A DNA stretch of 64,000 bases from an uncultured Planctomycetaceae bacterium (GTDB lineage Bacteria > Planctomycetota > Planctomycetia > Planctomycetales > Planctomycetaceae). Made by a program: the position numbers and the translations under genes. The number at the start of each line of letters is the position of its first letter. Position 1 is the first letter of the stretch. Of the stretch, positions 34,085-53,055 are shown in pieces. The stretch is from NCBI GenBank assembly GCA_963815195.1, contig CAWFGE010000010.1, positions 416,001 through 480,000 on the forward strand, written 5' to 3'. The notes under the pieces were generated by a model that saw nothing but the letters and a program-made list of their open reading frames with translations, was not told the DNA's origin and did not search any database.

Positions 34085-35484
34085 ATGAATACCACAACGC
34101 ACGAAGAGTCAGTGTGGAAACCGGGCGAGGGCCGGCAAAACTTAGACGCGGTGTTTGCGGAACTCGGCCGAATTTCTGCGATGCCGCCCGCACAAGACTC
34201 GTCGCCCGCCGGGCCGTCTCTTGAGGAAGCGGTGTGCGAGAGGGAAACTCCGGAAACGGTTCTTGGCCGCAGGGATTCGGAGAAGCCGACTCTCGCTCCC
34301 ACCGCAAAGCCAATCGGGGGCTCTCGCCGCTTTGGCTGGGTATTGATGGTCGTCTGCGTGTTAGGCAGCGTTCTGTGTTTCGCGCATGTTTTCACGAACG
34401 GCTTCGCCGGCAGCACTCCTTCACAGGCCAAAGCCGCGCCGCCCGCCAAGCCGGTTTCCCGACTTCTCACCCGCAAAATCCGCGACATTCACCCCGGCAT
34501 GCGCGTGCTGGCCGACAACCCGGAACTTGCCGGCCAGACGATTGCGCCCTAAAGATCGAACCTGCCCAATGGCGGCTGGTCTCATTGGAAATGCCAAAGC
34601 CGGACGGGTCGATTCTGTTCATGGCATTCCTTTGGGAACTGCGTGAACTCGGCGAACGCCAGTGTGGACAATCGGTGCCGATCAACCTGCCGGAATTGGG
34701 CATTAGTGGTTTGGCGACAATTACGTCCATTGCGCCCTGTCCCGAAGTCGAAGACGGCCCGGGCCGGGTCGTCACCGGCACGTTTCGTCATTCGAATGCC
34801 GCCGTAATCGACTTGCAAGTCGCCAGTGAAACAAAGCCGCTCGGTACGACCCCCAATCACCCGTTCTGGTCGGAGGACCGCCACGATTGGGTGCAAGCAG
34901 GACAACTGAACGTTGGCGAACGCCTGCGCCTCGAAAATGGCACGCTGACGACCGTCATTGCCCGCACTCCGCGACCGGGGCGGGATGAGGTCTATAACCT
35001 CCAGGTCGAGGGCCACCACACCTACTACGTCGGCCAATCCGGCGTGCTGGTTCATAACAGCCAGAATTATGCGAAATGGGCGGGAAAAAGCACCGATGCC
35101 CTTTCAGGATCTGAACTCGCCGAACTCCAGGGAGAATTTCGAAAATTAAGGAACAAGCTGCGTCATAATACGCAAGTGCCACAGCCCCTTATCAAGGGCA
35201 AACCGTCCTTCCAGGATCCCCAATTGCAACATTTAGCGGACCGCTTATATAAAGCCTACGGAAAGAAGACGGCAATCGGCTCGGGCAGCACTGCGGATGC
35301 CATCCGTGCGGAACGGCATTTTGGCGTGCGAGTCGGCGGCCTTCTGCACTCAACAAAAGGTGAAGAATTCATCAAAGCCATTCAAAACCAACTTGCCAAG
35401 CTGGGTTCCGGAGTCGATGAACTCGATGCCATTATGGCCAAAAAGTTAATTCAGGATCTGGAAGCGGCGCTTAAAGGATTTTGA
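34085..35484 (+). CDS. Toxin cassette: TM helix, Hint domain lacking its N-terminal Cys block, C-terminal toxin (1-nt frameshift near 34548)
   Basis: SRRFGWVLMVVCVLG, TRKIRDIHPGMRVLADNPE, TTPNHPFWSED, VYNLQVEGHHTYYVGQSGVLVHN|S; tail GSGSTADAIRAE..VGG..HSTKG. Confidence 0.85.
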
Positions 35485-35507
35485 GATTTCCTTTGGGAAT
35501 ACCCTCT

Positions 35508-35855
35508 ATGGCGAACGTTTCGTGGCTTGTCAGCCAGTTGCAGGAAATCTGTCCTGGATTCGCTCCTTTTTTTGAGGATCACAGGCGGATCTGGACCGCA
35601 CCAGATGAGAAATGTCCGTCTGATTTCGGCGTTTTCACCGTGTTCTCGGACTATCTCATTCAGAATTACTCGAATCTGCCGGAAACCCAGAAGAAGAAAT
35701 TAAGTGCCTTCATCGAACAGCACGTGCGGTATCCCGCAGAACCTTTTACGAACGACTTGCTCGTCGGAATCTTTGAGCACGTGGAGGACACGCCCATCGC
35801 AAAAGATTTTGCCCAGCACTTAAGCCCGGTTTCTCGCGAGAGATTTCACTTGTGA
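35508..35855 (+). CDS. Putative immunity protein
   Basis: Small lower-GC ORF directly after the toxin tip. Confidence 0.7.
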   Translation: MANVSWLVSQLQEICPGFAPFFEDHRRIWTAPDEKCPSDFGVFTVFSDYLIQNYSNLPETQKKKLSAFIEQHVRYPAEPFTNDLLVGIFEHVEDTPIAKDFAQHLSPVSRERFHL

Positions 35856-36152
35856 TGCCGTGCGCCGATTGGGCCTCTGATAGGACGACAATAATTGCTT
35901 CAGTCTAGATTCTTTAGACCGTTCTCGCTCGACATTTCCCGCTACGGAGAGATTTGAGCTTAAGGTTCACTGCTCGCTTTATTTGCTTTTTATCAGACAC
36001 GAATTGGTTGACGTTGAACTGGCCGGACGCCCACTCCGCTGTCATGAGCCGTCTTACCGCTCGGCATTCGAAACTCGGGCCACGCTCACTCAATGCCTCC
36101 CACTTTGTGCGCTGGGGTTCCGTCCGTCAAACGGATTTCAAGGAGTGCTGCT

Positions 36153-39100
36153 ATGCTTTTGGTCAACTGGCTGTTCTTGATTCGTCTGCGTTTGGGCTTG
36201 ATCGGACGCAAACGCCGGCGCGTGCATTCACCCTCCCGACGGAACCAAAACAGAACCCGTCCCGGCGAACCCTCGGGCCTCAATTGCCCGGAGGCCTTGG
36301 AGGAGCGAATCTTATTGTCCGCCCCCTCGGCGGCCGACGACTACTACTTCGTCCAAGATGCGACCGCGTGGTCGGTCTCCGCCTCCGGCGTTTTAGGCAA
36401 CGATTCCGATCCCGACTCCGATCCCTTGACCGCACAGCAGGTCAGCGGACCGGCCAACGGCACCCTGACGCTGAACCCCGACGGCTCGTTTACTTACACC
36501 CCGGACACCGGCTTTCAGGGCACCGACAGCTTTAGTTACCAGGCGTTCGACGGCGTCGAGACAAGCTCGGCCGCCCTGGTCACGCTGGATGTCGGCGATG
36601 TGGCAGGCGATTCCTTCGGCAGCGAACGCCTCGTCTCGGTCGCGGACGGACAATCCGTGGAACTCGGCGGGCTCATCGGCGATGGGAGCTATGGCGACGC
36701 GGACGTGGACATGTTCCAAGTGACTTTGAACGCCGGCGATTCGTTGACGGTCAATATCGACGCGGCCCAACTCGACGACGGCTCGGCGCTCAGCGGCCTG
36801 GACAGCTATCTGCGCATCTTCGACGAATACGGTTCCGAAGTGGCCTCCAACGGCGACGGGACGGACCCGCAAACCGGGCTGCCCTCCTCCGACAGTGTGC
36901 TGACATTTACCGCCTCGTCGCCGGGAACCTACACGATCGGCGTCTCGGGAGCTGGCGACGAGTATTACGATCCTTACTCGCCTGGCATGGGCAGTTCCGG
37001 AAGCACCGGGCAATACCAATTGCATTTGAGCCTGGCTGCCAACACTCCCCCGGCATTTGACAGTTCGTCGTACTCTTTCACGGTGCCGGCGGATGCGCAG
37101 TACGGGGACGTGGTGGGCACGGTCTCGGCCACGGATTCCGAAGGGGACATGTTCTCGTATTACAGCAATTCCTCGTTTCCGTTCGAGGTGGATTCCAGCA
37201 CGGGCGAAATCCGCTATGCCGACTCGTCGATGCTGACCGTCGGCAATCAGTACAATTTCACTGTCAACGCCGATGACATGTACGGGAGCGGATCGGCGAC
37301 GGTCATGATTGATGTCACCGCGCCGAACAACACTCCCCCGGCGTTCGACAGCTCCAGTTATTCTTTCACGGTGACGTCGGATGCCACTTATGGGACTTCC
37401 GTCGGCACAGTCACGGCCGCGGATCCGGACGGAGACAGCTTTTCCTACTCCAGCAATTCCTCGTTTCCGTTCGAGGTGGACTCCAGCACGGGCGAAATCC
37501 GCTATGCCGACTCGTCGATGCTGACCGTCGGCAATCAGTACAATTTCACTGTCAACGCCAATGACATGTACGGCAGCGGGTCGGCGACGGTGACGATTGA
37601 CGTGGTCGCCCCAAATCAGCCGCCCGTCGCCAATGCCGACACGTCCACCACGCCCTATGCCACGGCGGTGACGGTCGATGTGCTGGCCAATGATTCCGAT
37701 CCGGAAGGCGAGGCGCTGACTCTCGTTTCCGTGAGTACGCCCGCGCATGGGCAAGCCGTCCTCAGCAACGGGCAGGTGGTTTATACGCCGAATTCCAGTT
37801 TTGCGGGGGATGAGGCTTTCACCTATGTGGTGGCTGACCCGGAGGGCAATTCCAGCACCGGGAACGTCACCGTCACGGTCACCAACAATCCGCCCGTCGC
37901 GGTGGACGACCAGGTCACGACGGATTCCCAGACGGCGGTCACGGTGGACGTGCTCGGCAATGACAGCGACCCGGAAGGCTCCGCGCTGAGCGTGGCCTCC
38001 GTCGCGCAGCCGGCCCACGGCAGTGTCGCCCTCGTAAACGGCGATGTGGTTTATACTCCGGATGGTGTTTTCTTGGGCGACGAGACTTTTGATTACACGG
38101 TCCAGGACGCAGCCGGCGCGACGGCGACCGCGACCGTGACCGTGACGGTCGCCCCGTTGGAATTGACCGCCGTCGATGACACGGTGAATGTCGCCCAAGA
38201 CGGGGCCGGTGTCATCGGTGTGACCGACAACGACCTGATTCCGCAGGGTTCCACTCTCACGGTGACAATCGGCTCCGCTGCCACCAATGGATCGGCCGCG
38301 GTCAACGGCCTCTCGATCGAGTACGCGCCGACAGCCGGCTACGTGGGCTTAGACTCTTTCACTTATACCTTGACGGACCAGGACGGAAACACAAGCACTG
38401 CGACGGTCAATGTGACGGTGTTTGCCAATGAACCGCCCGTCGCGGCGGATGACGACTTGGAAATCGAAGCCGGCAGCGGCAAGGTTCTGGACGTGCTGGC
38501 GAACGACTCCGATCCGGAAGGCGGTCCGCTGACGATTGTCGAGGCGTCGGCGACCTGGCTGGGCACCGTCACGATTGCCCCCGGACAGGACGGGGAACCG
38601 GACCAGCTTGTGTACGATTCGCCGGCCGACACCTACGGAATCGAGACGGTGACTTACACGATCGCCGATGAGTGGGGCCGCACGGCGACGGCGACCGCGA
38701 CGGTGTGGATCTCGCCGCGGCCAGCCCCGGACATCGCGGACCTGGGGCTGGTGAACGACACGGGCGATGTTGGCGACCGGGTCTCGACCGACGTGCGGGT
38801 GACGGGCACAGTGGAGACTTCGATCGATGTCGCGGGCTTGGCGGTGGATGTGGATTACAACGGGGACCAGGCGGCCGACGCGGTGGCCGAGGTCGATTCT
38901 TACGATCTCACCTTCACGTACGATTTTGCCTCCGTTTTGACTTATGGCGATGCCACGGTTTACCTGCGGGCGGTGGAACTCGATGCCGACGGGCAGGTGG
39001 TGACGACGGGCGATTGGCAAGAGTTCCAATTCACGTACGTGGAGCAGGACGACCCGGATCCGACGAATGATGCCGACCCCAATTCCGCCGTATTGACGAG

Positions 39101-42100
39101 CGTGACCGTGGACCAGGCCACGGCGGATCTGGTCCAACTGTCGGGCACAGTGGACAACGTCAACGGCGGGACGGCGGCGGCGGTCGAATTCGACGTCGAT
39201 GGCGACGGCACGCCGGACGCCGAAGCGGCCACGACAAACGACGCCTTCACGCAGCAGTTCACCACCGAGGTCGGCTACGGGGACGAGGTCGTGGTGAGGG
39301 TCCGCACGCGGGACGTGGATGACGGCACCGGCGATATGCTCTATGGAGCCTGGCAACCCGTCGGCTTCAGCCGGGACTATCCGGTCAATGATCCGCCGCT
39401 CATCACGCAGCTCGGATTGGCGAACGACACGGACACGCCGGACGACAACATCACCAGCGATGCCACGGTGATCGGCACGATTTCGCACGCCGACGGTTCG
39501 CTGGAGGGGAACACCATCGAATACGACCTCAACGGAGATGACATTTACGACGGCACGGTCATCACCGATGCGTCCGGGCAATTCACGATCGACTTGAATT
39601 CCGCCGGCCTCGACGACGGGGCGGTGTCGTTGCGGGTCCGCTCGCGGGAATGGGACTCCGCCCGGAAAGAGCAACTCCACAGCGACTGGTCCACGTTGGA
39701 TTTTCAGTACACCGGAGCGGCCGCCCGTTTGCCCAGCCTCAGCGGTCTCGCCTTGGCGAATGACACCGGCACCGCGGGGGATGGGGTCACGTCGGATCCG
39801 ACGATCGCCGGCACCTTCGTCAGCGGGACGGCGGCGTTGAGCCAAACCGGCGTGGAAATCGATTTGAACGGAGACGGCGTTCCCGACGACCGCTTCCTCA
39901 CCGTCGATCCGGGGACCGGCAGTTTCACGGTCGACCTCTCCGATTATCTTAGCACCTCAGGCCCCGTGACCGTCGATTTGCGGGCCTCGGGCTGGGATGA
40001 CGCCGCCCAAGAAGCCCTCCAGGGAGATTGGGTGGAATTCACATTTACCTACGAGGCCCCGCCACCCGCCACCGCCCAGGTGACGGATCTCGCCTTGGTC
40101 AATGACACGGGGACGGTGGGCGACGGCATCACAAGCGATCCGCGGATCAGCGGGAAAGTCACGCATCCCAGCGAATCTGTCTCCGGAGCCTCCGTGCAAT
40201 ACGACTTGGATGGAGACGGGGCCTACGACGGCGAGACAACGGCGGACGGCCGCGGGCGGTTCAGCATCGATCTGACCGATGCGTCGCTTGCACTGGGCAG
40301 CGTCACGGTGGCGGTCCGCGCGGGCGTGTGGTCCGCGGCCGAACTGGGTGACGTCTGGGGCGATTGGGCGTCGTTCACTTTCACGCTGGAAGCCGCCGCC
40401 ACGCCGACGCGGCCCGAAGTCACGCAGTTGCAGCTTTTGGACGATGACGACGGGGACGGAACGGTCAGCCGGGCCACCATTTCCGGCACCGTGACCGACG
40501 GCGATTCCGCGGTGCAGTTGCTGCCGGTCGAGTTTGACGTGGACGGCGACGGCACCGCGGAAGGCCGGATTTACACCGACACGACCGGCTCCGGCAATTT
40601 CCTCGTCGATCTGACGCCCTTCCTCCAAGGCGACGGGGCCAGAACGGTCTATTTCCGCGCGGCGGAATCGGACACGGACGATTCGACCTTCGGCGATTGG
40701 GCCTCGTTCAGCTTCACCTTCCAAGCCGCGAGTGACACGTCGCAGGACGACCTCGTCGATGACAATCCGGTTCCCTTCACCAGTACGGACCTCTCGCACG
40801 TGCAATATGAGACGGGGGATTTGGGCATCGGCCTTACCGTCGAGAACACCGATTCCACGACCGCAGGGACGTTCGCCAGCGGCTATGTCCAAGTGGGAAG
40901 CGTCGTGGGCACTTCCGATCTGTTGGCGGCCATCGCCGACGCCGACATTAGTGAAGATACCCCAACAAACACCTCGGACTCCACCACCGACGCCAACGGC
41001 AACACGACCGACGTGGCGCAAACCGGCACCTGGCAAAGGACCGTGACGACCATCACCGACCAGGCGACGGGCGAGTGGTACCGGTACGAAAACGTGGTCC
41101 AAACCTATGACACCGTCACGGACTATACCGCCGCGGACGGCTCCGGTTATGACTTTCATCAGTGGGGGACTTACGGCTACACGCTCACGGCCTATGGCTA
41201 TAACGGAAACGCCGTCTATACTCTCGTGGAATACCGTACGGACAATTACGAGAATCAGCAGTGGACGGCAGCTGATCCTAATACCCTATTCGTCATCACC
41301 GGCTCGCAGAGCGACGACGTGGAATCCGGCGGCTATGTGAAGGTGAACGACGACGGTCTGGCGGCGCCGGGCTCCACGACCTCCTGGTCGAGCCAGGTCG
41401 ATACGGTCGATCCCACGATCGGCACCTATTCCTATGCCGCTTCCGCTTACGGCCGGCTGGAGTATACCGACTCCACGGGGAGCGGTTCGGTCGATACGAA
41501 CGGCGAGTATAGCGACAGTTGGAGCCAGACCTATTCTAGCGAGGCCGACACCCCCGCCGGCAGCGGCACCACGCTCACCGAGGTCTTCAGCTATCATTCG
41601 GTGCATGATGATCCCTATGACATCACGAATCAGGTGAATGTCAATGAGACGACAAATCTCGGTGGGGTCTCCAGGACGACCGTCATCGACGAGACGACCA
41701 CCCTCACCGGTGCGAAAACGGACACTTTCGACTCATCGGGAACGCGGACGACCTATGCCGACGGCACCTACGAGTCCGCCATCACCCAGACCTCGACACG
41801 CGAAATGCACGACACGTACAACTACAACGGGACACGGACCTACACCGTGGCAGACAACAGCGATCCGAATGCGACCGTCAACGAGTATTCCAACTCGACC
41901 GGCACCGCGACCCGCCAGCGGGACGTCGTGCAGGTTTATGGCGCGACCACGACCCGGCTCGTCGACGGCACGCAAACTGTCGCGGGGACCGTGGATGGGA
42001 ACACCTCGTCCAGCTACAGCGAATCCGGCGGCCAAGACCTCAACTCGGACGGAACCTCCGACGATGGGACCACCGTGATGTCGTTCTCCACAACCGGAAC

Positions 42101-45100
42101 GACGCATACCTCCGCCAATGGAACCTATCTGATGGTCACCACCGGCACGTTCGGCACGGCGGGCAAAGATATCACGAACACCTACGACACGACCGAAGCC
42201 GGCTCCTCCGATTGGAACTACACCGCTCAGGGCAACCGAGACTCCTCCCAGGACGACGGCGCGGGAAATACCAGCCTGTCCGGCGGCACGAGTTCCTCGA
42301 CAAACGACGGCAATACCAGCTACTCCAACACCATGCACGTCGATGAACACGTCACCGACGCCGGTGTCACATCCACCGGCACGATGAACCACACCGGCAA
42401 CGGCAACGGCTCATCCTCCTACGACGACACCGAATACAATACGACCACCACCGCCACCGGCACCACCGGAAATTCCAGCAGTTCCTACAACGACAGCTCG
42501 AACTACGGCAACGGCAGCGGCACCTGGACGTCCACCTCCACCGGGACCGGCACCATCACCAACGGCCAGGCCGATTACACCCAAACCGATACCCGCGACG
42601 AGAACGGCTCGTTCGCATCGGGCAATTCCAACACCTTCACCTCTCACTCGGAAAGCGACGACGGCTACCGCACCGAAACGAACGATTCCTCCGGCGGCAG
42701 CAAGTACGACGAGACCGGCACCTATAGCTCCTCCACCACCGACACGACGCACTCCGCGCCCGCCGGGGACTCGTCGTCCTCGTCCTCCACCTACAGCAAG
42801 CAGGCCGACACGACCTGGTCCAGCAACTCGAAAACCTCGAACACCATCCACGAGGATTACTCCAGCGAGGACTATCCCGGGTCGGGGACTTACGAATCCT
42901 GGCACGATGAATCCCACTCGGGAAGCAGCACGGACAGCGGCTCGGGAAACTACTCACTCAGCGAGAGCGCGAACTCCTCCACGGCGGCCGACGGAACCTC
43001 GACCTCCTCGACCGATTCCAGCTACAACTCCTCGGGATCCGGCACGACGACCACCAGCGGCTCGGATACGATCACCGACCACAGCCATTCCGACGACAAC
43101 AACGGCGTGACCAGCACGTCCGATCGCACCTCGTCCATCACTCGCAGCGGCACGACGACCTACCAAAACACAGCCAACGGCACCTCGAATGAAACCGACG
43201 GAGCAAGCAGCTCCACGGACTCGACTTCCTCCGTCAGCGACACGACCTCCACCGTCCACACCCAAAGTGACACCGTGCAGGACAGCGACGACACCAACGC
43301 CTCCGACAAGGCCACTTCCGACAGCCATTCCGAATCGCACGCCACCGACGACACGACCACGACCTCCCATGAGGAAACGGGTTCCGTGAATCAACAGTTC
43401 GCCGACGGCACCAGCGCGTCCCAGACCACGGACTCGGGATCGAGCGATTCGACAGGCACGTTCACCACGAGCACCAGCGCCGACAGTACGCGGGACGACC
43501 TGGGGGTGATGCTCGGCATCACCAGCCATGTCGCCAAGTCCTCGAGTTCCAACAGCACCGGCGACTCGACGTCGCATTCCGACTGGGACGACGAGCAGGA
43601 CACCTATGCCGACGGCACCTGGTCGACCTCTTCGTCTTCGTCCGGCAACTCGACCGTCAACACCACCGGCGACTCGTCCGCCACCGATGACGCCAACAGA
43701 ACCGACGCTTCGACCTCGACGACGAAAACCTCCACCACGCACGCCCACACGGCCACCACGAATGCCAAGCGATCGGTCACCTCCAACTGGTCCTCCGACT
43801 CGACGAACGGCTCCGCCGGCGGCACGACCGTGAGCTGGAGCACCGAAGACGTGACGGACAGCGGGGACGTTGAATCGGATTCCAATTCCAAGGTCCGGGC
43901 GGAAAAAGACGCCGACAACTTCAGTCAGACCTATAACGAAGAATCGAAAAACGGCTCCTATAACCTCACGGGCTCCAGCCGCGACGACCGCTTCGCCGAC
44001 GGCACGACCAGTTCCACCAGCACGCTGACCCGCACGGAAACCGGGACGAGCACGCGGAAAGAAGAAAACACGGGCAAGAGCAAACAAGTCTCCCATCCCC
44101 AGCCCGGGCTGACGCAGACTCTCACTTCCGATCAGGACGACACCTCGAATTGGACTGACATCACCTACACCGACACCTATTCGCTCAACACGGACGATCC
44201 CGTCGATGCCCCTTTGACCTCGACCGAGATCACGAGCCACACCGAATCCGGCAAGCAGAGTTGGAACTCGACGGACAACGGCGGCAGCAGCCTCACCGGC
44301 ACGGTGAACAATCCCGACGACCCCGACGATGAGAGCAACGGCACGGTATTCAACTCCTCCTCATCGTCCACGACCACCGAAGTCGGCAGCGGCGACTACA
44401 GCGACTCCGACACCACGACCGTCAAGGTCGACAACGGAGTCGAAACCACCACCGGGTCCGGTTCCGACAGCCTGGACGGCAACTCGACGCTCACCACCAC
44501 CGGGAACAGCAGCGGGAGCATCACCCAGAATCGCAAGATCGGCGATACGACTGTCAACTTCAACCAGACTTCTTCCAGTAACTCGAAGGGAACGGTCCTC
44601 ACCAAAATCGACGACTCGTCCTCCTTCGAAACGGACGGGAAGGGCGGTACGAAATCCACGACGAAAAGCAGCCCCACAACCTCCGGCTTTTCCACGTCCA
44701 GCTCCACAAAGACCACGACCGTCACGATGACGAAGAGCGGTTATAACTTTACTAAGACGGAACAAGACATCGATAAGTCCACCGGCAGTTTTGACGCCAA
44801 CCTATCGCATACGATTGATACGGATTTTGACGGGACAACGACACACAGCGGGGGCGGATCGAGCACAACCAAGAGCTGGTCTCTGTCCAAGAACACCGTT
44901 AACAGCACGACCTTCGAAAAGAAGACCGCCCTCTACTCGACCTGGAAGGGCTATTACAACCAGGTGGTCACCTACAATCAGTTGGATCAGACCACCACGA
45001 AATCCGACGGCAATGCCTCGTTGACCTATCAGACGGACGGCACGGAGACCTGGGGCGGCACCCAGACCGACCAGAAAGATATTATTCACGACAAGAAGAA

Positions 45101-48100
45101 AACCACGACCCGAATCGACAACGTTACTCAGGCCAAAACCAATCGCGACTTCGACGGTTACGAGGAAGATTACAAAAAAACATCGGGAAGCTTCACCGAG
45201 GACAAGACCCACGAAGAGAACCACTCGAAGACGAAACATCAAATCCAGTCCGACGGGAGCCTCGACGCCGGCGAGGACGTGCTCGATCCCGATATAAAAG
45301 CCGCGATCATCGAAAAACATGAAAAGGCCGGCTCGTCCGACACCGAGACCTGGGACGAAAAGAGCAGCCCCTCGTCCGGCGTGGGTGTGATGGAGAATTG
45401 GAAACACGTGCAAAACACGGACGGGACCGACAAAGGTTATATCTATTGGTCCAAAGGGTCAGGCGATTTCTACCGCGAGTATTATGACAAGACGGGCGTT
45501 TCGGAAACGATCGACAACTATAAGTACGAGCGGAAAGTCTTTACCGCGACCGAAACTTCCACTGAGACGATCCACGACGATTCGACCAGTTCGTCCGGAT
45601 CCAGCGAAAGCAAAATCGTCACCCCCACCGGCGATCCGAATTCGCCGATCGACACGCAAGAGTGGACCAAGACTTTCAACACTCGCGAGGACACCTACCA
45701 TCACGCCAACAACGGGACCAGGACCAATACCTACCAGGGAGAAATGACCCCCTACGAGGGAACCATCTCTTATGATGACACTACGAAGTCGGATTGGGAC
45801 TGGACCTACGACCGGCATGAGAAATACGACGGGTCTGAATCCCAGCAACGTCCCGCCGGCAGCGACACGGCGACCGCCAAGGTGGATTCGACGTGGGATT
45901 TGACGGTCGATTACCACGGAACCTGGGACGACACGGAGAACATCAACTCGACCAGCGCCACCGACAACTCGACGATGAGCATTACGAACACATCGCATGA
46001 GGAGGCCACGATTCATGGCGTGGCCAACGTCACCTACTCCGCCCAATACGACATCTCCGGCCTCAACGACGATCAGAATCCGCCGGTCGTCACGCCCGTG
46101 GGCGATCCCCAGCCCGTCGCCACCTGGTCCTGGGTCGAGGACTGGACCGGCAAGGCAAATTCCACGGGCAGTGCCACGATCGAACACTACATGCAAGACT
46201 ACACATGGGACGAAGCGACCCAGACTTACACCACGACCTGGGAATCAAAAGACTTCGGCGGCTCTTGGAGCGACAACGAGTCTTACCACTTCTCCGCCAG
46301 CGATTCCGACCCCAACGGCACGGAGAACTCCCCGCCGGGGACCTATAGCTCCAACATGGACAACGCCGACTTCCTCTCAAGCTACATGTATATTTACATG
46401 GACCATTTTTATACGCGGTCGCCCGACGTGGGTAATGGTCGCTCGGCCGATTACACCGACTTCAAGAGCGATGTGGACATGGCCGCGTATGAGCCGACGA
46501 TGGACAGCTACTCGTTCACGCTGTTCGCGTCGCTCGATCCGAGTTGGATCGACCAACTGGCCATCAGCCTGTACGACGCGTTTCAGGAGAACTTCCCCGA
46601 GCTATCCAATCTCATCTCCAGCACCTGGGAATATGCCTCATTCTTCGCCAGCGACCTGTTCCGGCAGTTCGACGACGGCACGATGGCCGACCGGGCCTTC
46701 GGGCTGATCGATGGCTTCTTGGACGGCATCAATCCCTTCAATCAATGGATCAGCGTCCCTGACATCGGACCGGTGTTCGGGCACGTCGAGGATTATGCCT
46801 TCTCGAAAACCGTGGGCACGTTTGCCGGCGTCGCCACGGGCATCGCCATCTCGATGATGGGGCCCGGGCTGGTCTCCTGCGGCACGTTCGCCCACAAGGC
46901 GATGGTGGCCTGGGAAGTGGCCGACGCCGTGGGCGGCATCGGCGGAGCCGTCCAAAACATCTACAACAACGGCGGCCAGGTCGGCGTCATGGACGCCCTA
47001 GCCATCGCGGGCGGCGTTGTCTCCATCGGCGGTCTCAAGGGCCTGATGAATAAGTGCTTCGTCGGCGACACGGCAGTCGTTTATGACCAAGAGGACATCT
47101 TCACGGCTGTCGCGGCGCCCGAGCGCCAGGCCGCCGACGCTCCATGGAACCTGAACTCGCTCATCCTTGGCGGCGGTTTACTGATGGGAATGGGGGCCGG
47201 TTGGTTCCTCGCGACCCGCAGGCGACTGGCTGCCCACGAGGAACCGCTTCGTCGCAAGAAAAAGACCGTCTTGGAGTTGTTCGGCGACCCGCAATTCCTC
47301 GATCGGCTCTGGCTGCCGCCGGGCGTCAAGCGGCCCTTGCCGGCCTTCGCCTTGCCCGGCGCTGCGAACTGTCATAGATTGATGGATGATTGGCCTTCAC
47401 CTGCAATGAACGCAGTCCCGCCACTTCCCAAGGAGCCGCCCGTGCCGGATGTTGCTGGCCCGAACTCCGATGTTGCTGGCCGGAAAGAACCTGCTCCTCG
47501 GAAGGAATCCGTTTTGAGTTCGCGCCGCTTCGGTTGGCTGATGATGCTGATCTGCCTCTTGGGCAGTGGGCTGTGCTTCTGGCAGGCGTTGCCAGGCGTG
47601 TTCTTGTCCGCTTCCCCTGCTGCAGTTCAGGCCGGCCCTCCGCCGGAACGCCAGACGAAGCTCTTGACCCGCAAAATCCGCGACATCCGCCCGGGCATGC
47701 GCGTCCTGGCCGACAATCCCGAACTCGCCGACGAGGTTGTGGAGCCGCTGGACATCGATCCCGCCCAATGGCGACTTGTGACGCTGGAGACGGCCAAAGC
47801 GGATGGCAATGTTCTCACGGTCGAACTGCTCAGGCCTCATGGGGAATTGCTGCTGGCGATTGTGGCGGCGGAGCGCTTGGAGGATCGAAAATCGTCACTT
47901 CCCGATGTGATCGATTTGGCATGCAGCGTCCGACCGACGATCAAGACGCCGGTGCGACTCTGTCAGGGCGCGGCTTTGCTGCCGGCGATTTTCCAAGAGA
48001 TGGCCGCCGCCAAAGCTCGTTTGGATCGCGGTGAGCCGATTTTCGCCGCCGTTTCCGAAGATCACAACTTGATCCGCCGAACCTTGCACCTCAACCTGCC

Positions 48101-48833
48101 GGAAATGGGCGCGGTCGGGCCGGCAAGAATCACCGCAGTGGCTCCCTGCCCGCCGATCGAGGAGGGCAAGGGCCGAATCGTTACGGGCCGGTTTATCCAT
48201 CAGGCCGCAAACGTCATCGACCTCAAAATTAGCGGCCTCGACGATCCCATCGGCACGACCGACACACACCCCTTCTGGAGCGAAGACCGCCATGCCTTCG
48301 TTCCCGCGGGCGAACTCCGCATTGGCGAAGAGCTCCGCAGCCTCTCCGGCGAGAAAACCTACGTCCTCGCCAAAACCCCCCGCGGGCCGCCGGAAGACGT
48401 GTTCAACCTCGAAGTGGAAGGCGAGCACGTTTATTACGTCGCAGAGAGTGGAGTTATCGTACACAACATGTGTGCGGATAAGGCAGGAAAAGGTGTAAAA
48501 TCCTGGATCATGCAAGGTGCCGAAAGTGACAAATACTACAACGAATTATCGCGAGCTGAAAAGTTACTATATATGCGAGGGCAAAAAACATTTAGCGGTG
48601 GTTTTTGGAAGAAAAACAAGGACGTATTAGAAGCCTTCACAGCCGGCAAGACTGGTCGTGAACTTGTCCAGGGAATTGTTGAACGAGGAAAATGGTTGAA
48701 AAAATTTCATCCAATTAGAAGTTCCAGTCTAAATATAATTGACTTCTTTCGAGGAATCGGAACCACAATTAGTTCAGGCCCCGATCCGGCTAGTCGCAAG
48801 ATCCTAATGTGGCTATTCCGTATTAAAGAATAG
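36153..48833 (+). CDS. Giant (4226 aa) extracellular polymorphic toxin: Ig/cadherin-like repeats, Ser/Thr/Asp-rich stalk, Hint domain, C-terminal toxin
   Basis: AAGGAG RBS; Arg-rich leader and EALEERILLS; PVAxDD...VLANDSDPEG repeats; Hint from CFVGDT (47055) to VFNLEVEGEHVYYVAESGVIVHN (48467); 121-aa low-GC tip. Confidence 0.93.
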   Translation: MLLVNWLFLIRLRLGLIGRKRRRVHSPSRRNQNRTRPGEPSGLNCPEALEERILLSAPSAADDYYFVQDATAWSVSASGVLGNDSDPDSDPLTAQQVSGPANGTLTLNPDGSFTYTPDTGFQGTDSFSYQAFDGVETSSAALVTLDVGDVAGDSFGSERLVSVADGQSVELGGLIGDGSYGDADVDMFQVTLNAGDSLTVNIDAAQLDDGSALSGLDSYLRIFDEYGSEVASNGDGTDPQTGLPSSDSVLTFTASSPGTYTIGVSGAGDEYYDPYSPGMGSSGSTGQYQLHLSLAANTPPAFDSSSYSFTVPADAQYGDVVGTVSATDSEGDMFSYYSNSSFPFEVDSSTGEIRYADSSMLTVGNQYNFTVNADDMYGSGSATVMIDVTAPNNTPPAFDSSSYSFTVTSDATYGTSVGTVTAADPDGDSFSYSSNSSFPFEVDSSTGEIRYADSSMLTVGNQYNFTVNANDMYGSGSATVTIDVVAPNQPPVANADTSTTPYATAVTVDVLANDSDPEGEALTLVSVSTPAHGQAVLSNGQVVYTPNSSFAGDEAFTYVVADPEGNSSTGNVTVTVTNNPPVAVDDQVTTDSQTAVTVDVLGNDSDPEGSALSVASVAQPAHGSVALVNGDVVYTPDGVFLGDETFDYTVQDAAGATATATVTVTVAPLELTAVDDTVNVAQDGAGVIGVTDNDLIPQGSTLTVTIGSAATNGSAAVNGLSIEYAPTAGYVGLDSFTYTLTDQDGNTSTATVNVTVFANEPPVAADDDLEIEAGSGKVLDVLANDSDPEGGPLTIVEASATWLGTVTIAPGQDGEPDQLVYDSPADTYGIETVTYTIADEWGRTATATATVWISPRPAPDIADLGLVNDTGDVGDRVSTDVRVTGTVETSIDVAGLAVDVDYNGDQAADAVAEVDSYDLTFTYDFASVLTYGDATVYLRAVELDADGQVVTTGDWQEFQFTYVEQDDPDPTNDADPNSAVLTSVTVDQATADLVQLSGTVDNVNGGTAAAVEFDVDGDGTPDAEAATTNDAFTQQFTTEVGYGDEVVVRVRTRDVDDGTGDMLYGAWQPVGFSRDYPVNDPPLITQLGLANDTDTPDDNITSDATVIGTISHADGSLEGNTIEYDLNGDDIYDGTVITDASGQFTIDLNSAGLDDGAVSLRVRSREWDSARKEQLHSDWSTLDFQYTGAAARLPSLSGLALANDTGTAGDGVTSDPTIAGTFVSGTAALSQTGVEIDLNGDGVPDDRFLTVDPGTGSFTVDLSDYLSTSGPVTVDLRASGWDDAAQEALQGDWVEFTFTYEAPPPATAQVTDLALVNDTGTVGDGITSDPRISGKVTHPSESVSGASVQYDLDGDGAYDGETTADGRGRFSIDLTDASLALGSVTVAVRAGVWSAAELGDVWGDWASFTFTLEAAATPTRPEVTQLQLLDDDDGDGTVSRATISGTVTDGDSAVQLLPVEFDVDGDGTAEGRIYTDTTGSGNFLVDLTPFLQGDGARTVYFRAAESDTDDSTFGDWASFSFTFQAASDTSQDDLVDDNPVPFTSTDLSHVQYETGDLGIGLTVENTDSTTAGTFASGYVQVGSVVGTSDLLAAIADADISEDTPTNTSDSTTDANGNTTDVAQTGTWQRTVTTITDQATGEWYRYENVVQTYDTVTDYTAADGSGYDFHQWGTYGYTLTAYGYNGNAVYTLVEYRTDNYENQQWTAADPNTLFVITGSQSDDVESGGYVKVNDDGLAAPGSTTSWSSQVDTVDPTIGTYSYAASAYGRLEYTDSTGSGSVDTNGEYSDSWSQTYSSEADTPAGSGTTLTEVFSYHSVHDDPYDITNQVNVNETTNLGGVSRTTVIDETTTLTGAKTDTFDSSGTRTTYADGTYESAITQTSTREMHDTYNYNGTRTYTVADNSDPNATVNEYSNSTGTATRQRDVVQVYGATTTRLVDGTQTVAGTVDGNTSSSYSESGGQDLNSDGTSDDGTTVMSFSTTGTTHTSANGTYLMVTTGTFGTAGKDITNTYDTTEAGSSDWNYTAQGNRDSSQDDGAGNTSLSGGTSSSTNDGNTSYSNTMHVDEHVTDAGVTSTGTMNHTGNGNGSSSYDDTEYNTTTTATGTTGNSSSSYNDSSNYGNGSGTWTSTSTGTGTITNGQADYTQTDTRDENGSFASGNSNTFTSHSESDDGYRTETNDSSGGSKYDETGTYSSSTTDTTHSAPAGDSSSSSSTYSKQADTTWSSNSKTSNTIHEDYSSEDYPGSGTYESWHDESHSGSSTDSGSGNYSLSESANSSTAADGTSTSSTDSSYNSSGSGTTTTSGSDTITDHSHSDDNNGVTSTSDRTSSITRSGTTTYQNTANGTSNETDGASSSTDSTSSVSDTTSTVHTQSDTVQDSDDTNASDKATSDSHSESHATDDTTTTSHEETGSVNQQFADGTSASQTTDSGSSDSTGTFTTSTSADSTRDDLGVMLGITSHVAKSSSSNSTGDSTSHSDWDDEQDTYADGTWSTSSSSSGNSTVNTTGDSSATDDANRTDASTSTTKTSTTHAHTATTNAKRSVTSNWSSDSTNGSAGGTTVSWSTEDVTDSGDVESDSNSKVRAEKDADNFSQTYNEESKNGSYNLTGSSRDDRFADGTTSSTSTLTRTETGTSTRKEENTGKSKQVSHPQPGLTQTLTSDQDDTSNWTDITYTDTYSLNTDDPVDAPLTSTEITSHTESGKQSWNSTDNGGSSLTGTVNNPDDPDDESNGTVFNSSSSSTTTEVGSGDYSDSDTTTVKVDNGVETTTGSGSDSLDGNSTLTTTGNSSGSITQNRKIGDTTVNFNQTSSSNSKGTVLTKIDDSSSFETDGKGGTKSTTKSSPTTSGFSTSSSTKTTTVTMTKSGYNFTKTEQDIDKSTGSFDANLSHTIDTDFDGTTTHSGGGSSTTKSWSLSKNTVNSTTFEKKTALYSTWKGYYNQVVTYNQLDQTTTKSDGNASLTYQTDGTETWGGTQTDQKDIIHDKKKTTTRIDNVTQAKTNRDFDGYEEDYKKTSGSFTEDKTHEENHSKTKHQIQSDGSLDAGEDVLDPDIKAAIIEKHEKAGSSDTETWDEKSSPSSGVGVMENWKHVQNTDGTDKGYIYWSKGSGDFYREYYDKTGVSETIDNYKYERKVFTATETSTETIHDDSTSSSGSSESKIVTPTGDPNSPIDTQEWTKTFNTREDTYHHANNGTRTNTYQGEMTPYEGTISYDDTTKSDWDWTYDRHEKYDGSESQQRPAGSDTATAKVDSTWDLTVDYHGTWDDTENINSTSATDNSTMSITNTSHEEATIHGVANVTYSAQYDISGLNDDQNPPVVTPVGDPQPVATWSWVEDWTGKANSTGSATIEHYMQDYTWDEATQTYTTTWESKDFGGSWSDNESYHFSASDSDPNGTENSPPGTYSSNMDNADFLSSYMYIYMDHFYTRSPDVGNGRSADYTDFKSDVDMAAYEPTMDSYSFTLFASLDPSWIDQLAISLYDAFQENFPELSNLISSTWEYASFFASDLFRQFDDGTMADRAFGLIDGFLDGINPFNQWISVPDIGPVFGHVEDYAFSKTVGTFAGVATGIAISMMGPGLVSCGTFAHKAMVAWEVADAVGGIGGAVQNIYNNGGQVGVMDALAIAGGVVSIGGLKGLMNKCFVGDTAVVYDQEDIFTAVAAPERQAADAPWNLNSLILGGGLLMGMGAGWFLATRRRLAAHEEPLRRKKKTVLELFGDPQFLDRLWLPPGVKRPLPAFALPGAANCHRLMDDWPSPAMNAVPPLPKEPPVPDVAGPNSDVAGRKEPAPRKESVLSSRRFGWLMMLICLLGSGLCFWQALPGVFLSASPAAVQAGPPPERQTKLLTRKIRDIRPGMRVLADNPELADEVVEPLDIDPAQWRLVTLETAKADGNVLTVELLRPHGELLLAIVAAERLEDRKSSLPDVIDLACSVRPTIKTPVRLCQGAALLPAIFQEMAAAKARLDRGEPIFAAVSEDHNLIRRTLHLNLPEMGAVGPARITAVAPCPPIEEGKGRIVTGRFIHQAANVIDLKISGLDDPIGTTDTHPFWSEDRHAFVPAGELRIGEELRSLSGEKTYVLAKTPRGPPEDVFNLEVEGEHVYYVAESGVIVHNMCADKAGKGVKSWIMQGAESDKYYNELSRAEKLLYMRGQKTFSGGFWKKNKDVLEAFTAGKTGRELVQGIVERGKWLKKFHPIRSSSLNIIDFFRGIGTTISSGPDPASRKILMWLFRIKE

Positions 48834-49088: not shown

Positions 49089-49667
49089 TGTTTTGGTTCA
49101 GCGGGAAACGGAATTTGGACGGGTTGGTGTTAGTGAATTGAAGATGACCTCCTGTCGCAGATTTCACGGCATCCTGCCGCGAAGGTTTTGCGCTTTCGGG
49201 CCAATCCCGAAGGGGTGACCCAAGGGACGGGATCGAATCCTCGGATTCGATCCCGTCTTCGGTCTTGGCTCCTGGGACGGCGCTCCGGTTGCTCCTCAGC
49301 AGAGCCGTATCCTCCGCCCAGGTTGTCTTCGATTGTGCCAAGCCGCTTCTCATCGGGCAACCTCCTGGCGCTTTGATTGTCGAGCCGCTTGGCGGCGCTG
49401 GCGGGCTTCTTCCAATTTGCGGTTACGTTCGGCAAAGATTTCTTTTTCGATCCCGGCGAGTTTGTCGCTGGGTGTGACATACCCGATGGCCGAGTGCAAG
49501 CGGACGTTGTTGTAATGCTCGACGTAATTTTGGATTCGCCTTTGAGCTTCCTCCAAGCTGGCGGGACAGGTGACCCGAATGCACTCCGACTTGAGGCTGC
49601 CGTGCCAGCGTTCGATCTTGCCGTTCGATTGCGGGTAATAAGGACTCGTCCGCACATGGGTTGCTCC
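49089..49667 (-). mobile_element. IS3-family remnant: 3' transposase part and right end
   Basis: THVRTSPYYPQSNGKIERWH...YNNVRLHSAIGYVTP; candidate end ...gctgaaccaaaaCA at 49089. Confidence 0.8.
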
Positions 49668-50870
49668 TGTCGGAGAACCCGAAGGTTTACGCAGTTACGG
49701 AACCCGAACTGTTACGCACCGATTTCCCCCAAGCGCGGTGGCTTTGGGGGCTTGAAAATCCCCCGCGCGCGGGGGATTTTCAAATTTTCTGACCGGGCCG
49801 GGGGCTTCGCCTATTCGCCCGGTCTGGATGCTCCCTCGGACCTTGCCGAGTCGGAAGCGGGCCGAGTCGAGTCCCGAACCGGTTCCTTGGCCGAAGTCAG
49901 CGACGTGATCGACCGTTCGCCAAGTTGAGCATCTAACTCTTTCAATCGGTAGCTGCGGCCTTGGATGTTGAGCACGGTTGCGTTGTGAAGCAAACGATCC
50001 AAAATCGCGCCCGCAAGAACCTCATCATCCGCCAGCACGCTGGGCCAACTGGCAATCCCTTTGTTCGTCGTGATCGCAATCGAAGAGCCCTTCGCGTAAC
50101 GATAGTTCACAACGCGGAACAACAGATTCGCACTTTCGCGATCCAATTGCTCATAACCAAACTCGTCGAGGACCACCAAGTTGGAGGACATGTACTTGCG
50201 GTGCTTCAAACGGGCCGGGCTCAATTCCGCGTCCTTGCGCAGCTGATGAAGCAGTTCCTCCACGAGATAAAAACTCACCGAGAAACCCGTCTCGATCGCA
50301 CGGGTCGCCAGCGCGACAACCAGATGCGTTTTTCCCACACCCGGCGGTCCTTGCAGCAACAATGCCCCGCCATCCCGAATCCACTGGCCGGTCCCCAGCG
50401 TTTCGATTTGACTCCGCGAAACCGACGGTTGGAAGGCGAAGTCGAAGTTCGCAATCGTGGGTCCCGTGGGCAAGTGGGAAATGCGAAGCGCTTGAGTCAC
50501 GCGTCGCTCTTCTTGACGTTCCAGCTCCAATCGCAACAACGCATCCAGAAACGCGCCATAACTCTGCTGACTCTTCACAGCCGCCGCGATCAGGTCGGGA
50601 ATCGCTTCGGCCGCGAAGGTCAATCGCATCGCCTCCAGGCGTTCGCTCAGGGCCTCCACATCTTCCGTCGGTTTCGGGCAGGGCAAAATCCCCGCCGCAT
50701 GCAGGCGTCGTGTTTGGGCAATTCTCATTGGGCCACCTCCGCCAGTTGCGCGTAAATCTCAATCGAGCGCAGCTGAACCGGCAGCGATGCGATCTCGTTC
50801 AACTTGCGGGCCATCTGCCCCAAAGGTCGCGGGGCTACAACGTCATCGGTCTCATCCCCCTCGTAGCACG
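49668..50870 (-). mobile_element. IS21-family remnant (istA tail, istB, right end) nested in the IS3 element
   Basis: End TGTCGGAGAACCCGAA with internal direct repeats gaacccgaa...ttacgca; istB; left end and most of istA missing. Confidence 0.8.
49811..50728 (-). CDS. istB: IS21 helper ATPase IstB
   Basis: FDFAFQP, GPPGVGKTHL, VVLDEFGY, ITTNK, AILDRLLH, GRSYRL. Confidence 0.95.
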   Translation of the reverse strand: MRIAQTRRLHAAGILPCPKPTEDVEALSERLEAMRLTFAAEAIPDLIAAAVKSQQSYGAFLDALLRLELERQEERRVTQALRISHLPTGPTIANFDFAFQPSVSRSQIETLGTGQWIRDGGALLLQGPPGVGKTHLVVALATRAIETGFSVSFYLVEELLHQLRKDAELSPARLKHRKYMSSNLVVLDEFGYEQLDRESANLLFRVVNYRYAKGSSIAITTNKGIASWPSVLADDEVLAGAILDRLLHNATVLNIQGRSYRLKELDAQLGERSITSLTSAKEPVRDSTRPASDSARSEGASRPGE

Positions 50871-51345
50871 GTCATCGACTCCCGCAACTCCCAGTGCAGG
50901 ATCGCCCGACGGCAGCCATCCAAGACGCTGGTCAGGTAATAAAACGTGCCTTCGATGTTGATGTAAGACACATCAATGTGCCAGTGTTCGTGGGGTTTTA
51001 AAGGCTGCACGAACCCCGTGCCTTTCTTGGAGGGCGAGAACTTGCCCTGGTCCAGACGCCGATTCGCTTTGAGTACGCGATAGACCGTGGCCGGGCTACA
51101 GGCGGCCACGTCCTCATCGAGCATCATGAACGTCAATCGGCGATAACCTTCCAAGGGATGCAGGTCATGATAGTCCAAAATCGCGGTCTTCTCCCAGTCC
51201 TCCAACCAGTGGTCTCTGGGGATCTGGCCATTGTGCTCGTTGGCCTTTCCATAGCGATTCTTCCACGAGTGAAACTTGCTCGTTCCCAGTTCCAACCAAG
51301 CCAAAAGTTTTGCCTCCTCACCAGAATCTGTGGGTGAACTCTGGT
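50871..51345 (-). pseudogene. IS3-family transposase, N-terminal/central fragment
   Basis: RYGKANEHNGQIPRDHWLE, EGYRRLTFMMLD, HWHIDVSYINI..TFYYL..VLDG. Confidence 0.85.
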
Positions 51346-51356
51346 TCGGGGAGCTT

Positions 51357-51518
51357 GGCGAACACGCTGCTGCAAAAGCCAATGACCGCGCCGGTGGGGA
51401 AGCTCACGTTGATGCCGAGCTTGCTGTAATCGCCCACGAGCATACCCACGAACATTTCGCCGGTTTCGACGGGTTGGCCGTTGATGGGCACGCGCACGGT
51501 GCCGTAGGTGTTTTTGAG
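51357..51518 (-). repeat. Second glmU-like internal fragment, direct repeat of 2725..2886
   Basis: 162 bp with 6 mismatches by manual alignment. Confidence 0.92.
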
Positions 51519-51531
51519 ATGACTCGTCCAG

Positions 51532-53055
51532 CTAACCGCCATATTGCTGGTCGGCATAGAACGCTTTCACGGCCACGAGCAGCGCGTAGTTGGTGGCGTG
51601 CAGGGCATCGTCGGGCTGAGTTTCGGGATGGCTGTAGCGGATGGTGCGGTTCTCGTCGTCATATTCGGCAACTTCTGCAGCGAACTCATCCAGGTAACTG
51701 CCCGAGTCCTCCCAGCGGGGAAAAAGGATCTGTTGCTTTTTGACCCGCGAGAGCACGACGCCGAGGCTCGCAGAGCGGTTGACGGTCCATTTGGTTAAGA
51801 TCCCGTCGGCGCGGGGCGGATGATCGGCTGCGGAATACAAGATCGCATAAAGCCCACCGGGACTCGTGAGCCGGTCCAGCAGCAAACGGTTATAGACATG
51901 GCCATTCCCGCCGCCGTCAGCGGCAATCAGGGGGACGCGGAATTGGGCACACCGCTGGGCGACAGCGCTTAAGATGTGGTTGGGATCTTCCGTTGCGGCA
52001 AATCGCTCGAAACGGCAGATTTGGAAGTGAAAGTCCGAACGCATGTAGCCGAGAACGAGGACCGTCCGCGACGTGCCACCGCCGCCCCAATCGATGCCGG
52101 CCACGAGATTCCGCCGGCCCAAGTGAGGAATCTCCTCAAGTGACTGAGCCATCGGAATCTCGCGGCAGCAAGCCTCGAGTTCCGCGCGGGTAACGACGTG
52201 ATCGCCGGTGGTTGTGGATAGCCCTAAGACTTCGTTTTTGAACTTCGCGAGATCGTAACTCCGCTGCCGCTCCAGGATCTCGTCATAGTTGAGCCAAGGC
52301 ACCATCGGGTGGCAAATCCAGTAGCCGTCCCCCCAACTCGCCTGGGGATTACGGGAAACCCAGCGGCCGGATGAGGGGTCGAGCGGCGCGGCGCAGTCGG
52401 GGCAGCGAAGGCCGTCGGGTCCCAGGCTGTGTTCATCGAGTATGACGCCCCTTTGGCAGACGGGGCAATCCAGCGTCCACTCGTGGGCCATCGACTGGCG
52501 AAACATCGATTCTAAGTGGTTGTCGACGGACTTGGGCGTGCCCGTCAGGATCGTTCGGCCGTTTTCGGCGTGGCTCAAGGTCTCCTGCAGAACGGGCAAA
52601 TCGCCCTCCGCCACGTCTTGGAACTCGTCCACCAGCAGCAAATGGGCGCTGAGTCCCCGGCAGGAATCGCCCGAGTGGTAGGCGGTGCGCAGGTGGACCG
52701 CGGAGCCGTTGGCAAACTGCATATTCATAACCTGCGGCTGCCGGCCTCGGCGACCCAGAAGCTGGCGGCGGATCAGGGGACTCTGATTCAAGGACGGCAA
52801 CAAGCGGATTTTACTGAAGACATGGGCCTGTTCGATCCGCGGGCACACAAACAGAATCTGCACGCCGGGATTTGTGCAGGCTTCGTAGAGGATCGTGTTC
52901 ACGAGAAAGGTGCTTTTTTCCGTCTGGCGGCTGCACCTGAGAACGAGGTTCCGCCCCGCCCTGGCATAGATGGCGGGCAAATACGGCCGGCCCTCAAAGG
53001 AAATCAGCGAGCGGTTCAAAAACACGAACCGCTCGCAAAACGTAAGCTTACTCAT
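51532..53055 (-). CDS. Terminase large subunit-like protein (GpA-like ATPase plus RNase-H-like nuclease)
   Basis: LRCSRQTEKST (Walker A), RGLSAHLLLVDEFQD (Walker B), LTGTPK, CPVC/CPDC, NEVLGL, AGIDWGGG, PDDALHA. Confidence 0.82.
   Translation of the reverse strand: MSKLTFCERFVFLNRSLISFEGRPYLPAIYARAGRNLVLRCSRQTEKSTFLVNTILYEACTNPGVQILFVCPRIEQAHVFSKIRLLPSLNQSPLIRRQLLGRRGRQPQVMNMQFANGSAVHLRTAYHSGDSCRGLSAHLLLVDEFQDVAEGDLPVLQETLSHAENGRTILTGTPKSVDNHLESMFRQSMAHEWTLDCPVCQRGVILDEHSLGPDGLRCPDCAAPLDPSSGRWVSRNPQASWGDGYWICHPMVPWLNYDEILERQRSYDLAKFKNEVLGLSTTTGDHVVTRAELEACCREIPMAQSLEEIPHLGRRNLVAGIDWGGGGTSRTVLVLGYMRSDFHFQICRFERFAATEDPNHILSAVAQRCAQFRVPLIAADGGGNGHVYNRLLLDRLTSPGGLYAILYSAADHPPRADGILTKWTVNRSASLGVVLSRVKKQQILFPRWEDSGSYLDEFAAEVAEYDDENRTIRYSHPETQPDDALHATNYALLVAVKAFYADQQYGG

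Follow-up and report, generated by a model that had tools for sequence, protein, structure and literature searches.

How can a pre-toxin Hint domain operate when two transmembrane helices stand between its Cys1 and the rest of its fold? The question is raised by a giant gene in a stretch of 64,000 nucleotides from an uncultured Planctomycetaceae bacterium (GCA_963815195.1, contig CAWFGE010000010.1, positions 416,001 to 480,000), here called the window. We consider it likely that the gene encodes the fused form of a two-piece, membrane-assembled pre-toxin Hint resembling a type-A BIL, which belongs to a planctomycete polymorphic-toxin system and releases both carrier and tip.

The giant gene and its interrupted Hint domain

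The features of the locus are listed in Table 1. The full open reading frame of the giant gene covers 36093-48833, and the SD energy was -7.8 at ATG 36153 as against -2.1 at 36093. The carrier length of about 3650 aa given in the preliminary description was corrected to 3634 aa by the SD-led ATG 36153. The leader resembled the N-termini of several relatives (P0003, P0004, P0009 and P0010). It is not a classical Sec signal, and 3634 residues precede TM1, which is a point against membrane assembly. The best-scoring repeats were followed downstream by further repeats and then, judging by composition, by a long Ser/Thr/Asp-rich stalk. For the two Gly/Ala-rich stretches before Cys1, predicted membrane insertion was poor (Hessa sums of 4.5 and 4.7). 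A contig of run X1, which may be the source sample, was identical to 46979-47367 and bridged Cys1 and TM1; no single listed piece of this run covers the whole Hint.

Table 1. Features of the carrier-Hint-tip locus and of the stand-alone module upstream of it
Feature	Position	Strand	Remarks
Stand-alone TM2-HintC-tip gene lacking Cys1 and TM1	34232..35484	+	upstream of carrier; 55-56% identical to main gene
Candidate immunity gene of stand-alone module	35481..35855	+	overlaps the module's stop; DUF7674 match weak, below cut-off
Giant carrier-Hint-tip gene	36153..48833	+	4226 aa, AAGGAG-led ATG; protein P0002
N-terminal leader	36153..36320	+	hydrophobic stretch, Arg-rich stretch, E-x-LE-x-R-x-LLS
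Ig/cadherin-like repeats, best-scoring stretches	36321..37877	+	Pfam Big_9, Cadherin_4/5; NCBIfam tandem-95
Two Gly/Ala-rich hydrophobic stretches, pre-toxin segment	46818..47036	+	directly before Cys1; KD 1.46, 1.81
Hint N-fragment: Cys1, strands beta1-beta2	47055..47099	+	pLDDT 98 at residues 1-10, strand 7-15
TM1, predicted out to in	47160..47216	+	followed by Arg/Lys cluster
Loop, disordered, predicted cytoplasmic	47217..47528	+	53-219 aa in relatives
Internal in-frame AAGGAG and GTG (47442)	47430..47444	+	about 30 codons before TM2; SD -7.5
TM2, predicted in to out	47529..47591	+	Arg/Lys before it
Hint C-fragment start (beta3 onward, KIRDIRPG)	47652..47714	+	from alignment and model
Second insert, small beta domain with extra helices here	47715..48173	+	about 150 aa here, about 87 aa in most relatives
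Hint core: block B T402/H405, terminal His-Asn H470/N471	48174..48467	+	PT-HINT; TIGR01443
Variable tip, presumed toxin, starting Met-Cys	48468..48833	+	121 aa; GC 0.415 vs 0.62 in Hint
Candidate immunity ORF, hydrophobic, 64 aa	48878..49072	+	from position and sequence

As first described, the Hint starts with CFVGDTAV at 47055, resumes with KIRDIRPG at 47673 (residue 207), measures 471 aa up to the His-Asn ending at 48467 and is followed by a tip of 121 aa. Pfam PT-HINT (PF07591) scored 45.4 bits against a gathering cut-off of 27.7 and covered profile positions 33-136 only. The match was confined to Hint residues 374-471 because a second insert (residues ~221-373), overlooked in the preliminary description, also interrupts the domain. 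In an AlphaFold2 model built from 124 sequences, pLDDT was 91-98 across the Hint core. The first insert ran in this model from about residue 13-15, after beta2, to about residue 199 and comprised TM1, the loop and TM2; the helices spanned residues 33-76 and 155-177, and the loop was disordered. The model superposed on the Clostridium BIL structure 2LWY (C. thermocellum) over 132 of 138 residues in the model range 1-471, with a Z score of 17.4 and an rmsd of 1.8 Å. The top 31 structure-comparison rows were all Hint-family by title, and Foldseek agreed. The 2LWY alignment starts at residue 1, so the structure prediction proposed earlier as a check favours the CF segment being part of the Hint fold; in the model it would supply beta1-beta2, with the hairpin in the beta2-beta3 turn.

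The window gene thus carries Cys1 in block A and a predicted Hint fold, and its Hint, with 471 aa, two inserts and two TM helices, is not compact, contiguous and soluble. Cys, Phe and Thr of the opening motif were invariant in 30 of 30 rows, which had been selected by that same motif. TxxH was present in 50 of 55 fused relatives and 107 of 112 Cys1-less proteins, and the terminal HN in 54 of 55 and 111 of 112, respectively. The residue at +1 is Met in the window, Ser or Thr in 19 of 54 clusters and Ala or Gly in 21 of 54. Counted by row, Cys, Ser or Thr occupied it in 4 of 17 split forms, 12 of 33 fused forms and neither of the 2 unlinked ones. Canonical splicing as the default was rejected, as the +1 nucleophile is unconserved, split forms included. 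A disulfide tether between an N-extein Cys and a Cys at +1 to +3 was likewise rejected, there being no association between the two (15 of 22 with vs 19 of 32 without).

The two hydrophobic helices scored 1.56 at 47160 and 1.78 at 47535 in 19-residue Kyte-Doolittle (KD) windows. Their summed Hessa values, 1.61 for TM1 and 0.71 for TM2, were the two most favourable among the seven windows of the protein with KD > 1.3; TM1 is Gly-rich and moderately hydrophobic. Protein and locus searches yielded 75 full-length Hints with the insert, which formed 55 clusters at 45% insert identity. At KD >= 1.4, TM1 was found in 49 clusters, TM2 in 54 and both in 48, and a third hydrophobic stretch within the loop in one only. 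The hairpin is not a chance feature, because both helices recur in 48 of the 55 clusters; the two helices of the preliminary description are real, and the search it proposed for homologs with the same insertion recovered the hairpin in 55 sequence clusters.

A positive-inside pattern marks membrane topology. Over the 55 clusters, the mean number of Lys and Arg per 15 residues was 0.47 before and 5.9 after TM1, and 3.85 before and 1.29 after TM2, the pattern of an out-in helix followed by an in-out helix. From this signature we infer that the loop is cytoplasmic and that both Hint halves are exposed on the outer face of the inner membrane. The earlier proposal that both halves lie on one side of the membrane agrees with these conserved charges. 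Its picture of a single chain anchored by the insertion is incomplete: relatives often make the halves from separate genes, each half with an anchor of its own, and the window gene is the fused form. An acidic motif, D-x-[LIVFA]-F, was present in the first 70 loop residues of 32 of 55 clusters (3.9 in shuffles) and was seen by eye also in split N-halves and some stand-alone C-halves. It is possibly a binding site for a cytoplasmic partner.

Split, stand-alone and unlinked halves in relatives

A class-wide search for the N-half gave 36 matches in 29 of 301 genomes, and 30 loci were returned. These counts are lower bounds, the first N-half profile having recovered only the window gene from its own genome and missed the paralogues on contig C9. 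False positives of the N-half profile were L223, L245 and L247. Fifteen of the 30 carrier loci were fused, and ten were split into a carrier ending Cys1-TM1-stop and a separate TM2-HintC-toxin gene, a stop codon and intergenic DNA taking the place of the loop region. The ten split loci had N-halves of 70-124 aa, gaps of 13-108 nt and, in seven, an SD of <= -6. The other five were one locus with TM1 and TM2 before the stop and then a C-gene, two without a C-half within 1.7 kb, one contig end and one false match. Conversely, 10 of 134 Cys1-less ORFs lay directly behind a carrier ending in Cys1, TM1, a basic tail and a stop. In an intermediate form (L181:3189-3947 and L211), the carrier has Cys1, TM1, loop and TM2 before its stop, and a second gene, for TM2-HintC-toxin, comes next; the two overlap at stop and start in L181, where the SD is strong.

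Genus g382, which includes the two Stieleria chromosomes behind L057 and L061, had the N-half in 15 of 19 genomes. Thirteen of its 16 loci were split, three had no adjacent C-half and none was fused; SD at the C-gene starts was weak or absent (0 to -3.0). L061 and L065 had identical stop and ATG positions with frame-breaking indels between them, and the N-genes were intact frames of ~13,000 aa, one of them an open frame of 13,983 aa. The shared stop and ATG and the long open N-gene argue against sequencing error or decay. The ~13,000-aa giants of this genus (L194, which is G302:C1:10118000-10134000, and L195, L193, L248 and L249) contain two Hints in series: a compact Hint, ~280 aa of Gly/Ala-rich hydrophobic sequence and then a split or TM-less second Hint. 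TM-less and split paralogues were both present in one g382 genome. The upstream compact Hint could do the processing instead, which would speak against the split-Hint reading.

On a tree of the Hint core the split rows required 12 changes, at least five of them forced, and a single split clade was rejected (p-AU 7e-166, 50 of 62 rows). Quick trees were used, and the 12 rows omitted from the clade test were long branches or near-copies; C-terminal recombination can also scatter the split and fused labels on a core tree. The split L225 grouped with the window protein, with a support of 91 and 49% identity. The loop is evidently dispensable, a stop codon and a new start being able to replace it, which suggests that carrier and toxin can be produced apart and meet later.

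Most relatives have no Cys1 and start shortly ahead of TM2. TM2 was kept in 99 of 112 Cys1-less proteins, at a median of 19 residues from the called start, in a set biased toward TM2: the search profile behind the top 150 proteins included TM2 columns. At the DNA loci, TM2 was in frame in 91 of 106 Cys1-less ORFs. An in-frame start with SD <= -6 kcal/mol was found in 34 of 91 C-half ORFs compared with 9-12 of 91 in four control windows; in the window's own genome, by way of scale, 20% of the likely true starts (318) and 7% of the internal ATGs (1119) reached this energy. Of 11 in-frame start codons listed from Cys1 to TM2 in the window gene, GTG 47442 had the strongest SD. It is a candidate start of a TM2-HintC-tip product, which would be made from the fused gene itself. 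An internal SD of <= -6 was found in 8 of 27 fused genes and in 0-2 in controls (p 4e-5 to 0.05), a modest excess among kin that are not independent. In 36 of 55 clusters the final 50 residues of the loop included a Met, and in 25 of 55 the first 50 did.

The stand-alone gene upstream of the carrier has a candidate GTG start at 34232, ~32 codons before TM2, with an SD of -5.6. Its frame is broken near 34546-34552, which may be an assembly error, because a contig of run X1 has one extra base there. Among 124 candidates, one homolog of the window tip was found: P0164, a called protein of 455 aa on a contig of only 1.7 kb, which starts 13 residues before TM2, shares the tip and is 63% identical overall. 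Four to five related modules in tandem, together with a single stand-alone C-half, also occur in the window's own genome (G000), at C9:47600-58600 and C9:2475-3911 (L040 and L041). They belong to another subfamily, in which the TM1 spacer is short.

Some halves are not linked at all. In G301, a genome of one chromosome, a gene of 12,447 aa ends Cys1-TM1-stop at 0.62 Mb. The ORF after it is presumably transposase-like. Only two C-half genes were found there, one at 2.89 and one at 3.01 Mb, ~2.3 Mb away from the carrier; both are surrounded by housekeeping genes and have an ORF downstream. The draft assemblies G604 and G600 had the same unlinked pattern, and three g382 species had, in place of an adjacent C-half, unlinked ones only. 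The G301 N-half and the 2.89-Mb C-half were predicted to bind through N-half residues 3-19 with a score of 0.66 (best control 0.00), a result to be expected anyway from their likeness to solved Hint folds. The contacts of this pair agreed to >= 58%, with a partner pLDDT of >= 55, and the pairing mark was reached by 51 of 78 solved pairs and 2 of 108 mismatched pairs.

Possible assembly at the membrane and competing readings

From the sequence anatomy, its conservation, the charge pattern, the split genes and the predicted fold we infer the topology, the cleavage, the internal start and the pairing in trans. The carrier would end in Cys1-beta1-beta2, with TM1 as a stop-transfer, and the remaining Hint and the tip would be led by TM2 as a signal anchor. 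Both pieces would stand outside the inner membrane, where a cytoplasmic loop, if present, merely links them. Docking of beta1-beta2 into the C-fragment would complete the Hint fold; the carrier would then be freed by an acyl shift at Cys1 and the tip by cyclisation of Asn, leaving the spent Hint in the membrane. Action in trans is plausible, and we lean slightly towards trans processing of some kind. Ligation of the toxin to the carrier is a tentative idea, the +1 position having no conserved nucleophile. Splicing without such a nucleophile was reportedly claimed by Dassa and colleagues in 2004. The split system would be easiest to rationalise if the toxin ended up on the carrier. We put forward, as a speculative extension, that one HintN-TM1 carrier may pair with any of several TM2-HintC-toxins, unlinked ones included, and that non-canonical trans-splicing may ligate the toxin and excise the anchors.

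The fused protein could instead be a cis-acting anchor, the split and stand-alone forms being decayed copies or silent recombination cassettes. Fifteen of 30 loci are indeed fused, 55 of 134 Cys1-less ORFs are preceded by another Hint-toxin module, as ordinary cassettes are, and stand-alone cassettes are a known source of polymorphism (PMC3482391). Recombination cassettes would need the Hint core only, yet the Cys1-less genes keep TM2 and a start codon. Moreover, genus g382 has no fused copy in 16 loci and has kept its stop and start positions, and in G301 the C-half genes are flanked by housekeeping genes, at a distance of 2.3 Mb from the carrier. Processing confined to cis is an unlikely account. 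An inactive Hint, in which TM1 is just a C-terminal anchor and the C-half cleaves itself alone or never, would fit the carriers without an adjacent C-half, and certain isolated intein C-fragments do C-cleave without a partner (PMC3620165). CF-x-x-x-T-x-V is nevertheless retained even in those carriers, while the neighbouring linker diverges freely, and we regard inactivity as very improbable.

Two further readings assign the helices another role. TM2 might be a cleavable signal peptide; the C-half would then be released in soluble form to the periplasm and bind there to the N-half anchored by TM1. In favour of this, TM2 has a basic n-region and is close to the called starts (the median of 19 residues given above), and 29 of 55 clusters have an AXA-like motif behind it, with V-Q-A in the window. 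The strict A-x-A was found in 6 of 55 only, with no control set for these counts, and the spacing is unconserved by eye; cleavage of TM2 seems improbable to us. By eye, no lipobox match was seen at the end of TM2 in the window. The helices might also form a translocation hairpin, chaperoned or meant for the target membrane, instead of anchoring the protein in the producer. The Gly-rich, moderately hydrophobic TM1 and the two-TM domains of other toxins (PMC3113570) would suit such a hairpin. The positive-inside pattern is however present on both helices, each protein of a split pair has one helix and no more, placed at its end or its start, and the Gly/Ala segments before Cys1 fit the role better, so that a translocation hairpin is scarcely credible.

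Known systems, variable tips and the second insert

The two-piece Hint shares with PT-HINT (PF07591) and type-A BILs such as 2LWY the Cys1, TxxH and His-Asn, the lack of a conserved +1 nucleophile, the predicted fold and the position between a carrier and a variable tip. The known domains are contiguous and soluble, with ~135 aa, whereas the planctomycete Hint has a TM hairpin after beta2, a second insert with a beta domain and natural splits. BILs without a +1 nucleophile give mainly cleavage (PMC7664689). Among split inteins, the natural, atypically split AceL-TerL and GOS-TerL have an N-fragment of 25-37 aa (PMC11766414). Engineered S1 split inteins have one of 10-12 aa and are split between beta2 and beta3, the site of the break in the split Hints, and trans-splicing was active in only 4 of 14 (PMC3620165). 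A short N-fragment ending after beta2 is common to all of these, and the Hint relatives have it in a two-gene layout. The atypically split inteins, as far as these sources describe them, are soluble, reside in phage enzymes and have Cys, Ser or Thr at +1, in contrast to the split planctomycete Hints with a membrane anchor on each half, a giant carrier and a variable toxin as exteins and an unconserved +1 residue.

HINT peptidases and toxin-immunity cassettes have been described in polymorphic toxins (PMC3482391; MafB, PMC7738311). A constant carrier, variable nuclease or deaminase tips, downstream immunity ORFs and arrays of extra modules are shared with these systems (PMC3482391, PMC3113570, PMC7738311), but the extra modules of planctomycetes look like translatable genes with a start and an anchor of their own. 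In the accessible part of PMC3113570, two-TM domains are placed N-terminal to PAAR domains or beside HINT and not inside it, and Planctomyces nuclease toxins with a distinctive signal peptide are mentioned. No description of a TM-interrupted or split BIL was found in the titles, abstract openings and text passages searched.

Judged from these sequences, the interrupted and split Hint is real and widespread in planctomycetes. It would be a bacterial intein-like domain that is anchored in the membrane and naturally split, and it would offer a mechanism for retaining planctomycete surface proteins of 3,000-14,000 aa at the inner membrane and for releasing them. The view of orphan toxin modules as silent DNA cassettes is called into question, because each such module brings a start and an anchor of its own. 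The dozens of divergent split-Hint pairs that nature supplies, with an N-fragment of ~12 residues, would work outside the cytoplasm and may be useful in protein ligation and as membrane-proximity tools. If ligation in trans took place, toxin polymorphism would arise at the protein level, without DNA recombination.

The family of the window tip had no match in Pfam, NCBIfam or Atlas. The tips of relatives matched nuclease or deaminase families in 17 of 90 scanned, many families being represented. The 64-aa ORF behind the tip had no significant family match in Pfam and NCBIfam. Three planctomycete loci (L011, L012 and L019) had Hint-toxin ORFs in which a single hydrophobic segment at the N-terminus precedes a Hint that is intact or extended in a different way.

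The second insert had a model pLDDT of 78.8, its best Z score was 4.4 among 48,161 chains, with no clear match, and the ESM Atlas gave leads below 0.9 only. The two inserts are independent of each other: the second was found without the hairpin in L006, L007, L009 and L195, and the hairpin without the second insert in L032:9274-10263. The ~87-aa beta domain, which has a conserved W, R-P, E-x-G and C-P (alignment A6), is common in planctomycete Hints.

Around the locus, a methyltransferase with MethyTransf_Reg and PKMT C-terminal domains is encoded upstream, at 32027-33601 on the plus strand. On the minus strand, right after the immunity candidate, an IS21-type istB ATPase (49811-50728, Pfam) lies among transposase-like fragments (49130-51382). 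The same strand also carries a gene for a phage terminase large subunit gpA-like ATPase (51532-53055, Pfam PF05876), which suggests a prophage or island remnant beside the locus.
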